Source of the DNA: Candidatus Uhrbacteria bacterium
GTDB taxonomy: Bacteria; Patescibacteriota; Patescibacteriia; UBA9934
DNA: 64,000 bases
NCBI GenBank assembly: GCA_943354605.1
Contig: CALRCK010000004.1
Coordinates: 23,584 to 87,583, forward strand
Direction of reading: 5' to 3'
The notes below the pieces were generated by a model. That model made no database searches. It was not told the DNA's origin and saw only the letters and a program-made list of their open reading frames with translations. Numbering within the stretch: the stretch's first letter is position 1; each line of letters begins with the position of its first letter. The translations under genes and the position numbers were made by a program. Below, piece after piece: positions 28,191 to 31,601 of the stretch.

Positions 28191-28544
28191 TTAGACGAAT
28201 TCAATAACAGCGACTTCTGCGGCGTCGCCCTGACGAATGCCCATCTTTGTGAGACGAGTATATCCGCCGTTGCGATCCTTGAAGCGTGGTCCGAGAACCT
28301 CGATGAGCTTCTTCACTGGTTGTTCCGTGCTGAAGTACGCCAAGAGTTGACGACGTGATGCGAGCGTGTTGGTTTTTGCAACCGTGATCATCTTTTCGAC
28401 GACGGGGCGGAAAACCTTTGCTTTGCCGGCGGTCACTTCAATGCGTTCGTACGTCACCATGGCGGTAACGAGATCGCGGATGAGCGCCTTGCGGGCCGAG
28501 GACTTTCGTCCAAGCGTTTTTGTAGTATTTCGGTGGCGCATACA
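28191..28544 (-). CDS. rplQ: 50S ribosomal protein L17
   Basis: MRHRNTTKTLGRKSSARKALIRDLV... Start trimmed to the MRHR Met. Confidence 0.9.
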   Translation of the reverse strand, partial: CMRHRNTTKTLGRKSSARKALIRDLVTAMVTYERIEVTAGKAKVFRPVVEKMITVAKTNTLASRRQLLAYFSTEQPVKKLIEVLGPRFKDRNGGYTRLTKMGIRQGDAAEVAVIEFV

Positions 28545-28545
28545 A

Positions 28546-29292
28546 TTATTCTTGTGGTGCGTCCTCCGCCGCACGAGCAATTTGTTCAGTAAGACTTGCG
28601 TGATTCAGTTGTCCTTGAATCCACGTGAAGTGGTTCAAAAGAATCTTGGTGGTCTGCTCGACGGCCTCTTGAGGAGTAACCGTTCCGTCGGTGGTGATAT
28701 TCATGATGAGCTTGTCGTAGTTCGTGATTTCTCCGACGCGAGTATTCTCTACGCGGAAACCAACGTTACGCACTGGGCTGAACATGGCATCCACGGCGAT
28801 CACACCAATTTCTGTTGGGGCAGCGTCGCGTTCCTCGGTTGGAACGTACCCACGGCCGCGAGAAACGGTGATTTCCATGTCGAACGGCGTCTTTGCATCC
28901 GTGATGGTTGCAATCTCGAGCTCTGGGTTTGCGATGTCCACATCAGCGTTCTTTTCGATTGCTGCTGCGGTGACCACACCAACCTTGTTCGTTGCAAGCT
29001 TGAGGACCACTGGCTCTTCGCTGTGCACGCGCATGCGAAGCTTCTTGATGTTGAGCATGATGTCCAAGACATCTTCTTTCACACCAGGAACCGTGGAGAA
29101 CTCGTGTTGCACACCCTTGATTTTCATTGCCGTAACCGCTGCGCCTGGAAGAGACGAGAGCAACACGCGGCGAAGCGAGTTCCCAACCGTTGTACCGTAT
29201 CCGTGGTGGAGCGGCTCAATGGTAAGGATGGATTCGTTTGCAACTGCGCCAGGAGCGAAGTGCATCTTTGACGGAAGGAAAATGGTCTCCAT
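28546..29292 (-). CDS. rpoA: DNA-directed RNA polymerase alpha subunit, N-terminal domain only (no alpha-CTD)
   Basis: 248 aa with alpha-NTD blocks (LEPLHHGYGTTVGNSLRRVLLSSLPGAAV...). The protein ends about 12 aa after the NTD. rplQ starts 2 nt downstream, leaving no space for a CTD. Confidence 0.8.
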   Translation of the reverse strand: METIFLPSKMHFAPGAVANESILTIEPLHHGYGTTVGNSLRRVLLSSLPGAAVTAMKIKGVQHEFSTVPGVKEDVLDIMLNIKKLRMRVHSEEPVVLKLATNKVGVVTAAAIEKNADVDIANPELEIATITDAKTPFDMEITVSRGRGYVPTEERDAAPTEIGVIAVDAMFSPVRNVGFRVENTRVGEITNYDKLIMNITTDGTVTPQEAVEQTTKILLNHFTWIQGQLNHASLTEQIARAAEDAPQE

Positions 29293-29316
29293 AGGAAGGT
29301 TATGAGACGAATGCGA

Positions 29317-29937
29317 TTACCGCATTGAGTAAAACTCGATAATGAGCTTTGGATCGTATGCTTCCTTCAAATCATCCCCCATTGGAAGACTCACCACTTT
29401 GCCGACCAAGTTGTCACGGTGCAACCATCCTGCCGTGCGATGGGTTTTCAGGCGCTCCTCAAGATCCGCAAAGACCTTCTTGTCTTTCTTGCTCGCCTTG
29501 ATTTCAATCACGTCGTTGACCTGCACAGTATACGACGGAATGTTCAGCTTCTTGCCGTTCACAAAGAACATGCAGTGGCTGACCATTTGACGAGCCTGTG
29601 GACGCGTCTTCGCAAAGCCGAGGCGGTACACGGTGTTGTCCAAACGCTGCTCAAGCAAACGTCCGAGATTTTCTCCGGTGTTGCCCTCCATGCCGGTGGC
29701 CTTCACGAAGTAGTTTCGGAATTGTCGCTCCATGATACCGTACAATCGTTTTGCCTTCTGCTTTTCACGAAGCTGGGTTCCGAAAACCGAAACCTTTGCT
29801 GGCCGACCACCGGCCTTCCCGTGAACACCAGGAGCGTACGGACGCTTCTGCATCACCTTGAGCACACTCGTGGATGCCGACAATGCGACACCTTCACGAC
29901 GGCTCATCTTTCCCATTGGAATAAGAGTTTTTCCCAT
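29317..29937 (-). CDS. rpsD: 30S ribosomal protein S4
   Basis: 206 aa, S4 N-domain plus S4 RNA-binding domain (..RLDNTVYRLGFA..). Confidence 0.9.
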   Translation of the reverse strand: MGKTLIPMGKMSRREGVALSASTSVLKVMQKRPYAPGVHGKAGGRPAKVSVFGTQLREKQKAKRLYGIMERQFRNYFVKATGMEGNTGENLGRLLEQRLDNTVYRLGFAKTRPQARQMVSHCMFFVNGKKLNIPSYTVQVNDVIEIKASKKDKKVFADLEERLKTHRTAGWLHRDNLVGKVVSLPMGDDLKEAYDPKLIIEFYSMR

Positions 29938-29940
29938 AGA

Positions 29941-30378
29941 TTACATGCGACGAGCACGACGTGGACGGCACCCATTGTGTGGGACCGGCGTGGTGTCTTT
30001 AATGGAGAGCACGTTGAAACCGACCGTGTTCAATGCGCGCACTGCAGCGTCGCGGCCATTGCCGATACCCGTCACAAACACGTGCACATCCTTAAGGCCG
30101 AACGGTTCAACCTTTTCAAACACTTTCTTCACAATGACGCTTGCAGCGAAAGGCGTTGCTTTCTTTGGTCCCTTGAAGCCGCAGTTTCCCGCGCTCGACC
30201 ATGCCACGATGTTTCCGTTCGCATCGGTGAGCGACACGATGGTGTTGTTAAAGCTTGCGTGCACGTATGCGCGACCCTGAGGAATTTGGCGAACCACTTT
30301 CTTCTTTGCGGTCTTTGCACCAGCCTTTGCTGGCTTTTCGGCTTCCGTTGCGGGAGCGATAATTTCTTCTTCAGTCAT
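29941..30378 (-). CDS. rpsK: 30S ribosomal protein S11
   Basis: ..GRAYVHASFNNTIVSLTDANGN..RRARRM. Confidence 0.9.
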   Translation of the reverse strand: MTEEEIIAPATEAEKPAKAGAKTAKKKVVRQIPQGRAYVHASFNNTIVSLTDANGNIVAWSSAGNCGFKGPKKATPFAASVIVKKVFEKVEPFGLKDVHVFVTGIGNGRDAAVRALNTVGFNVLSIKDTTPVPHNGCRPRRARRM

Positions 30379-30381
30379 AGC

Positions 30382-30768
30382 TTAGGTCTTGGCAAGAGTA
30401 CGACGACCACTTCCGGCGGTCTTTCGAACGTTTCCTCGAACGGTTCGGGAATTCGACTTGGTGCGCTGTCCGCGAACCGGGAGGCCGCGGGTGTGGCGGG
30501 TTCCGCGATACGACGCAATATCCTTCAAACGCTTGATGTTTGAGAGAACGTCGCGGCGAAGTTCACCTTCTACGCGATATTCCTTTTCCACGATGACGCG
30601 AACCGCATTTTCCTGATCTAAGGTCAGGTCTTTCACGCGAATGTCGCCGCTCACCTTTGAACGCTCAATGACGTCCGCTGCGCGCTTTTCACCGATGCCG
30701 TAAATATACTGCAACGCGTAAAAAAGCTTTTTCTGAGTTGGGAGTGTAACACCAGCAATACGTGCCAT
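30382..30768 (-). CDS. rpsM: 30S ribosomal protein S13
   Basis: MARIAGVTLPTQKKLFYALQYIYGIG... Confidence 0.9.
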   Translation of the reverse strand: MARIAGVTLPTQKKLFYALQYIYGIGEKRAADVIERSKVSGDIRVKDLTLDQENAVRVIVEKEYRVEGELRRDVLSNIKRLKDIASYRGTRHTRGLPVRGQRTKSNSRTVRGNVRKTAGSGRRTLAKT

Positions 30769-30773
30769 AGATT

Positions 30774-30887
30774 TTAGCCTTGACGCTGCTTATGCTTAGG
30801 AGTCTTGCAAATGACGAGCACGCGACCTTCGCGGCGGATCACTTGGCAATCGCGGCACATTTTCTTGACGGAAGCGCGAACCTTCAT
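30774..30887 (-). CDS. rpmJ: 50S ribosomal protein L36
   Basis: Not in the ORF track because it is under 60 aa. The reverse complement reads [37 protein letters not shown]. Coordinates accurate to about 3 nt. Confidence 0.8.
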
Positions 30888-31350: not shown

Positions 31351-31601
31351 AACTTTGCGATATGATACCACATTCACCTCAGTGGTGAGCGCGGTATTAC
31401 CGCTTCAGTAAAGCACCGGGATTGTAGGCCAGACGCGAAAAAGTGTCAATTATTTACCCACAAACGCCCTATTTTCCACCTTTTCATTGCTTTTCCCTTT
31501 ATTTTGTGCTATTCTTCCGCCGCGCCCGTCATTGATAGGCGTCTGTAACGGCCAGATCCGTCGTTGTCCCCGTCCCTCGCTCCCTCAATGGAGTTTCCCG
31601 C

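Follow-up and report, generated by a model that had tools for sequence, protein, structure and literature searches.

A natural, lineage-wide RNA polymerase alpha subunit without its C-terminal domain in bacteria related to Candidatus Uhrbacteria

Introduction

Is a bacterial RNA polymerase alpha subunit that stops just after its N-terminal domain (NTD) a genuine form of the protein, and what would its polymerase then do without the C-terminal domain (CTD)? The question is raised by the rpoA gene of a 64,000-nucleotide stretch of DNA from Candidatus Uhrbacteria bacterium (hereafter the window), whose product is only 248 residues long. According to PMC8321222, alpha truncations of the 1-235 type in E. 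coli (Igarashi & Ishihama 1991, Hayward et al. 1991, as cited there) indicate that the alpha-NTD is enough for alpha2-beta-beta' assembly and basal transcription, and UP-element recognition and class I activation require the alpha-CTD.

Loss of the alpha-CTD has been described for the insect endosymbionts Hodgkinia and Tremblaya, with Euglena chloroplasts cited as well, and Parcubacteria are covered there by one passing sentence (PMC8321222). RNA polymerase is absent from the main text of the source cited for that sentence (PMC4508563). The alpha-CTD is usually regarded as a universal component of transcription initiation in bacteria; a 2025 comparative paper describes it as 'ubiquitously present across all Bacteria' (PMC12531629), and our literature search found nothing further that is specific to alpha-CTD loss in CPR/Patescibacteria.

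Results

The rpoA gene and its junction with rplQ

The rpoA open reading frame begins with ATG and ends with TAA (Table 1). Stop-codon recodings exist in some candidate-phyla bacteria; since genetic codes 11, 4 and 25 all read TAA as a stop, recoding is unable to lengthen the gene. The ATG of rplQ follows in a different reading frame after a spacer of four nucleotides, not the two given by the first-pass annotation. That annotation had also argued that no CTD can be hidden by a frameshift at this locus, and the succession of TAA, short spacer and rplQ bears this out. An identical rpoA with an identical junction is present in an independent Logan assembly (ERR5863123, L001).

The gene order around rpoA, infA-rpmJ-rpsM-rpsK-rpsD-rpoA-rplQ-rplM-rpsI, is standard: rpsK and rpsM are canonical alpha-operon neighbours, and rpoA stands between rpsD and rplQ, as expected of a bacterial RpoA. 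The small rpmJ gene lies under the 40-aa minimum set for the ORF listing. The annotated start of rpoA is probably right, since the N-terminus METIFLPSKM is kept in homologs. The rpsD stop is separated from the start codon of rpoA by 24 nt (29293-29316, minus strand; ...CATAACCTTCCT-ATG) with no recognisable Shine-Dalgarno sequence, and the gap of about 250 nt between infA and rpmJ holds no convincing gene.

Table 1 Features of the rpoA region, with positions in the window.
Feature	Position	Strand	Evidence
rplQ (ribosomal protein L17), 116 aa, directly downstream of rpoA; ATG at 28541	28191..28541	-	PF01196, E 1.6e-33; L001
rpoA-rplQ spacer, 4 nt, TTGT on the coding strand	28542..28545	-	sequence; L001
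rpoA stop codon TAA (28548-28546)	28546..28548	-	sequence
rpoA, RNA polymerase alpha, NTD and short tail, 248 aa	28546..29292	-	ORF, Pfam, NCBIfam, AF2
Tail motif W-I-Q-G-Q-L-N-H-A-S-L-T-E-Q-I-A-R-A, codons 224-241	28570..28623	-	homolog alignment; AF2
rpsD (S4), 199 aa, directly upstream of rpoA	29317..29916	-	PF00163, PF01479; L001
rpsK	29941-30378	-	ORF; Pfam family of L001 gene call
rpsM	30382-30768	-	ORF; Pfam family of L001 gene call
rpmJ (L36), 37 aa, between infA and rpsM	30774-30887	-	sequence
Promoter-like site TTGACA-17-TACAAT (11/12), 44 nt upstream of infA	31421..31449	-	consensus scan, sequence

An NTD-only member of the bacterial RpoA family

Pfam identifies PF01193 at residues 26-222 (E 8.6e-23), PF01000 at residues 57-172 (E 3.4e-30) and nothing else. 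This is the make-up of an alpha-NTD, in which the RNA_pol_L dimerisation domain (PF01193) is interrupted by the RNA_pol_A_bac insert (PF01000). Pfam gives no match in the protein to PF03118, the alpha-CTD family, even at E<=1; the helix-hairpin-helix domain that a canonical RpoA carries on a flexible linker is absent, and the first-pass description of a 248-residue alpha without a CTD is upheld.

The assignment to RpoA is clear. Residues 18-243 align to positions 19-244 of 320 in the NCBIfam rpoA equivalog profiles, with scores above the curated cut-offs of both NF003519 (285.6 bits, cut-off 277) and TIGR02027 (260.7 bits, cut-off 227.8). Of the solved chains, B. subtilis RpoA (6wvj_A, E 1.5e-62) is the nearest. 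The AlphaFold2 model (mean pLDDT 79.9) shows the fold of an alpha-NTD and superposes on solved alpha-NTD structures at TM 0.77-0.88, and homologs retain the NTD signature residues (G-N-x-L-R-R-V-L-L-S-S and others) with little or no variation. Judged from its sequence, the window protein is an RpoA orthologue of reduced architecture.

Canonical RpoA of B. subtilis (6WVJ chain A, 314 aa) and E. coli (329 aa) is about 45-47% identical to the window protein over the NTD and shares its two Pfam domains, its fold and its place in rpsM-rpsK-rpsD-rpoA-rplQ. On the other hand, the last 70-85 residues of the canonical protein, which form the helix-hairpin-helix CTD, are missing from the window protein. 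Aligned with the E. coli and B. subtilis sequences, it ends near E. coli residue 245, within the stretch that forms the flexible inter-domain linker of canonical RpoA. The post-NTD tail therefore measures about 18-26 residues, depending on the NTD boundary chosen, and is strongly conserved; the first-pass estimate of about 12 residues was too low.

Subunits without an alpha-CTD-like domain are normal elsewhere: archaeal Rpo3 (RpoD) and eukaryotic Rpb3/AC40 are homologous assembly-platform subunits that naturally lack one. The window protein clearly belongs with the bacterial subunits, with 260-285 bits for the rpoA models and only 17.6 bits for the archaeal RpoD model NF001988, well below the cut-off of 153. 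It presumably forms a homodimer and not a heterodimer of the Rpo3/Rpo11 type.

CTD absence across the lineage

An error in sequencing or assembly, a premature stop or decay into a pseudogene may also leave a short open reading frame, and we weighed this explanation against the homologs. The best 120 (72-100% identity), which represent clusters from many independent assemblies and sources, are all 232-253 aa long and all NTD-only; their named members are 'Patescibacteria group bacterium' or 'Candidatus Uhrbacteria bacterium'. This uniformity shows that the short rpoA is not a product of chance or local error. Nothing was found in favour of an artefact or a decaying gene, and the common length and end of the 120 clusters, the minimal distance between the rpoA stop and the rplQ start, the high conservation of both NTD and tail and the scores above the NCBIfam cut-offs all speak against it, so that its probability is practically negligible. 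The first-pass annotation had likewise thought a sequencing error unlikely, and both the homolog lengths and the Logan assembly agree with it.

We then consider a broader range of relatives. Among the best 150 representatives at 50% clustering, a local jackhmmer search that started from the CTDs of E. coli and B. subtilis detected the domain in 79 but not in the other 71, and Pfam detected PF03118 in 0 of 72 sequences of the CTD-less set (window protein included) at E<=0.01. Within the representative set, all sequences whose NTD is 53% or more identical to that of the query lack the CTD.

Among the named genomes listed, CTD-less rpoA occurs in Uhrbacteria (237 aa), Veblenbacteria (264 aa), Parcubacteria (261 aa) and 'Patescibacteria group' (273 aa), and the CTD is kept in five Saccharibacteria/Saccharimonadales, one Andersenbacteria and another Patescibacteria genome; these come from a species-representative sample of at least 600 stretches, mostly non-Patescibacteria, which makes the taxonomic map only a sketch. 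In the CTD-less named loci rplQ lies 5-36 nt after rpoA, so that the deletions are clean. With 120 of 120 close homologs and the Uhrbacteria, Veblenbacteria and Parcubacteria loci in agreement, the lineage is fixed for the CTD-less state. Thus, on these sequence comparisons, the CTD-less alpha is a clade-wide lineage trait, which settles in the affirmative a point that the first-pass annotation had raised.

An NJ tree of the NTDs gives 24 state changes. We do not trust this figure as a count of losses, because resolution is poor at about 50% identity and because truncated, frameshifted and chimeric gene calls are included.

Several representatives of 300-452 aa (P0151, P0179, P0189, P0204, P0207, P0219, P0232, P0264 and others) consist of an RpoA NTD followed by foreign sequence, namely CorC_HlyC, ChapFlgA, Epimerase, ABC_tran or Sel1 domains (Pfam), or Arg-rich tails. 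We rejected these 'CTD-less' proteins as real fusions in view of their unrelated domains and nonsensical Arg-rich ends. Their most likely origin is in public assemblies with chimeric contigs or genes called out of frame, and naive counts of 'CTD-less' alphas are therefore inflated. A further case is the actinobacterial rpoA ORF of an uncultured Gaiellaceae MAG (CAWJFZ010000004.1; L021:3935-4912), which has a normal length of 325 aa and no match to our CTD HMM (E 0.23); its C-terminus could be frameshifted or its CTD very divergent.

Search for a CTD encoded elsewhere

A CTD could in principle be encoded elsewhere, as a stand-alone or fused domain, and act in trans. We searched for it with an HMM built from 81 CTDs and run with --max (no filters). 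The best E value is 2.4 over the 1429 six-frame segments of the 64-kb window and 2.9 over the 1904 segments of seven CTD-less related loci (about 50 kb), as opposed to 5e-15 to 5e-24 for the positive-control loci. A tblastn search of the window with the CTDs of E. coli and B. subtilis as queries gave a best E of about 4. On both searches, a CTD elsewhere within the window is rejected.

In a profile search of a 5.8-billion-protein collection with Patescibacteria CTDs, the best 120 matches were short fragments, entries marked 'partial' and split gene calls. The CTD-only proteins that we inspected resemble Saccharibacteria or Firmicutes rpoA and not Uhrbacteria proteins, and we set these matches aside as uninformative on trans CTDs of the Uhrbacteria-like clade. 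A recurrent CTD-only protein of 92 aa (P0354, P0318, P0374, P0375 and others; MGGSVEDIPADE...) is Firmicutes-like and occurs on up to 26 contigs; it is either a consistently split rpoA gene call or a true stand-alone alpha-CTD in a non-Patescibacteria lineage.

A split gene is therefore very improbable. Nothing positive speaks for it apart from the many short CTD-only proteins in the protein collection, and it runs against the empty searches in every frame of the window and of the seven loci, as well as against the foreign affinities of the proteins inspected. Moreover, an untethered CTD would defeat the purpose of the domain, which is to recruit the polymerase via a covalent linker, and in other CTD-less lineages the domain is simply lost (PMC8321222).

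A conserved C-terminal tail

The short tail of the window protein is not degenerate. Close homologs share a consensus of about 17 residues, W-I-Q-x-Q-L-x-H-A-S-L-T-E-Q-I, and W224, Q226, Q228, L234, T235, E236 and Q237 show no variation among 36 homologs (72-100% identity), in which the conservation of the tail equals that of the NTD core. The AlphaFold2 model predicts helices at residues 207-230 and 232-244, with a tail pLDDT of about 65-77. In our alignment the tail is a remnant of the inter-domain linker region, predicted to be helical. The strong constraint suggests that this helix probably serves a purpose of its own, in structure or in docking.

The tail of the window protein reads ...EQIARAAEDAPQE, with no K-K-R-G-R-P-K-K near its end. 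It is short and net acidic (charge -3), so that direct DNA binding by it is unlikely.

AT-hook-tailed alpha subunits of other Patescibacteria

In many of the other CTD-less alphas of Patescibacteria the protein continues into an acidic linker of 25-85 aa with a lysine-rich end. Five sequences, with NTDs only 40-46% identical and linkers that cannot be aligned, all end in an invariant K-R-G-R-P-K-K. A profile search returned as its best 120 matches NTD-only proteins of 259-330 aa, named Falkowbacteria, Komeilibacteria, Kerfeldbacteria, Parcubacteria group and Patescibacteria group. K-K-R-G-R-P-K-K is found 3-8 residues from the C-terminus in 117/120 of them; the motif was part of the search profile, which raised the ranking of hook-bearing matches, and the count therefore shows a large group and not its fraction. 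Members of this group, at 264-330 aa, include P0132, P0133, P0141, P0205, P0401-P0517 and the Veblenbacteria gene L003:4007-4801 (JAUYKG010000028.1).

K-K-R-G-R-P-K-K is a canonical AT-hook, a minor-groove binder of A/T-rich DNA, and in these proteins it occupies the place of the alpha-CTD on its tether. From its sequence, the hook may be a minimal substitute for the minor-groove binding of the alpha-CTD in these sister lineages. Our literature search found no published description of an AT-hook-tailed alpha.

The AT-hook-tailed alphas of Falkowbacteria, Komeilibacteria, Kerfeldbacteria, Veblenbacteria and the 'Parcubacteria group' resemble the window protein in being NTD-only by Pfam, without a CTD, and they share its gene context where this was checked (L003). 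They differ from it in their acidic and poorly alignable linker of 40-85 aa that ends in the hook. The RGRP motif is found in none of the 120 best homologs of the window clade, nor in the window protein itself, which thus stands outside the AT-hook group. This contrast sharpens the question of what, if anything, compensates for the CTD in the window clade.

One possible answer is that the tail helix (residues 224-241), or a protein docked on it, supplies a contact with upstream DNA or regulators that replaces the alpha-CTD. The tail is predicted to be helical and is as conserved as the NTD core among the homologs of 72-100% identity, and the conserved DNA-binding AT-hook at the equivalent position of sister lineages suggests selection for some C-terminal function. 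However, the length and charge of the tail make direct DNA binding unlikely, no partner is known, the tail may be no more than a prolongation of the final NTD helix that packs against the core of the polymerase, and its pLDDT is only 65-77. We consider such a functional replacement unlikely.

A wider form of the argument, which we put forward tentatively as a possibility with the odds against it, is that in one large Patescibacteria branch the alpha-CTD was not simply lost and a series of alternative C-terminal modules took its place. An acidic tether with an AT-hook could then do the UP-element job of the alpha-CTD. The window clade would be further along, with no DNA-binding tail and only a strictly conserved 17-residue helix, which may offer a regulator or a general factor a new place to dock. 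If this were true, the recruitment of RNA polymerase to upstream promoter DNA would be wired differently in this branch.

Discussion

Taken together, the evidence leads us to regard the window protein as very probably a natural, fixed CTD-less alpha that acts only as a scaffold. In this scaffold reading, the 248-residue alpha would be the single, functional rpoA product of a Patescibacteria bacterium related to Candidatus Uhrbacteria, and an ancestor would have lost the alpha-CTD cleanly, at the inter-domain linker. The product would retain all that is needed to dimerise and to nucleate the assembly of beta and beta-prime on an alpha2 scaffold. By analogy with the E. coli truncations (PMC8321222), and given the strong purifying constraint on the protein, we infer that the enzyme assembles and transcribes without an alpha-CTD.

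From the established biology of the alpha-CTD, such a subunit would be unable to bind the minor groove of A/T-rich UP elements or to dock class I activators. Because alpha would serve as an assembly platform only, promoter use would depend on sigma: recognition would rest on sigma-DNA contacts at the -35 and -10 elements, and any activation would go via sigma, beta/beta-prime or the alpha-NTD. The scaffold reading fits a small genome of housekeeping genes.

The engineered E. coli truncations have the same NTD-only architecture as the window protein. They are laboratory constructs, whereas the state in the window is natural, fixed and conserved across a clade, with a conserved extra helix. E. 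coli is not known to be viable with a CTD-less alpha, so that some compensation may exist in the window lineage.

The alphas of Hodgkinia, Tremblaya and Euglena resemble that of the window in their natural loss of the CTD, in reduced genomes with few regulators. These are single, host-restricted and organelle-like lineages, often with eroded NTDs; in contrast to these endosymbionts and plastids, the window protein has an undamaged NTD, and many environmental lineages of Patescibacteria share the loss. The CTD-less alpha described here is thus real, clade-wide and under-documented, and not a new category, as loss has already been reported for reduced genomes. The window gene alone is noteworthy rather than startling.

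A large, free-standing bacterial radiation without an alpha-CTD would have no alpha-mediated recognition of UP elements and no class I activation, and would be a natural test of the minimum of upstream promoter contact on which a bacterial polymerase can work. This is relevant to promoter prediction and regulon inference in Patescibacteria and to the reconstitution or heterologous expression of their transcription machinery. The sister lineages with an AT-hook provide a testable hypothesis of compensation.

Finally, we looked at promoter-like sites in the window. Only seven sites of at least 10/12 are present in the 64 kb, with an upstream A+T of 0.48-0.70 against a background of 0.477; upstream A/T at the seven shows no clear trend. 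The site upstream of infA (Table 1), a pattern match only, is a candidate promoter of the infA-rpmJ-rpsM-rpsK-rpsD-rpoA-rplQ-rplM-rpsI string. Despite the CTD-less alpha, an A-rich tract just upstream of this site looks like an UP element or intrinsic curvature, a mild caveat to the scaffold reading. Site and tract together lie within 31421-31510 (minus strand); the tract has A-tracts phased at roughly 10 bp and reads aaaataaaggg aaaagcaatg aaaaggtgg aaaata.
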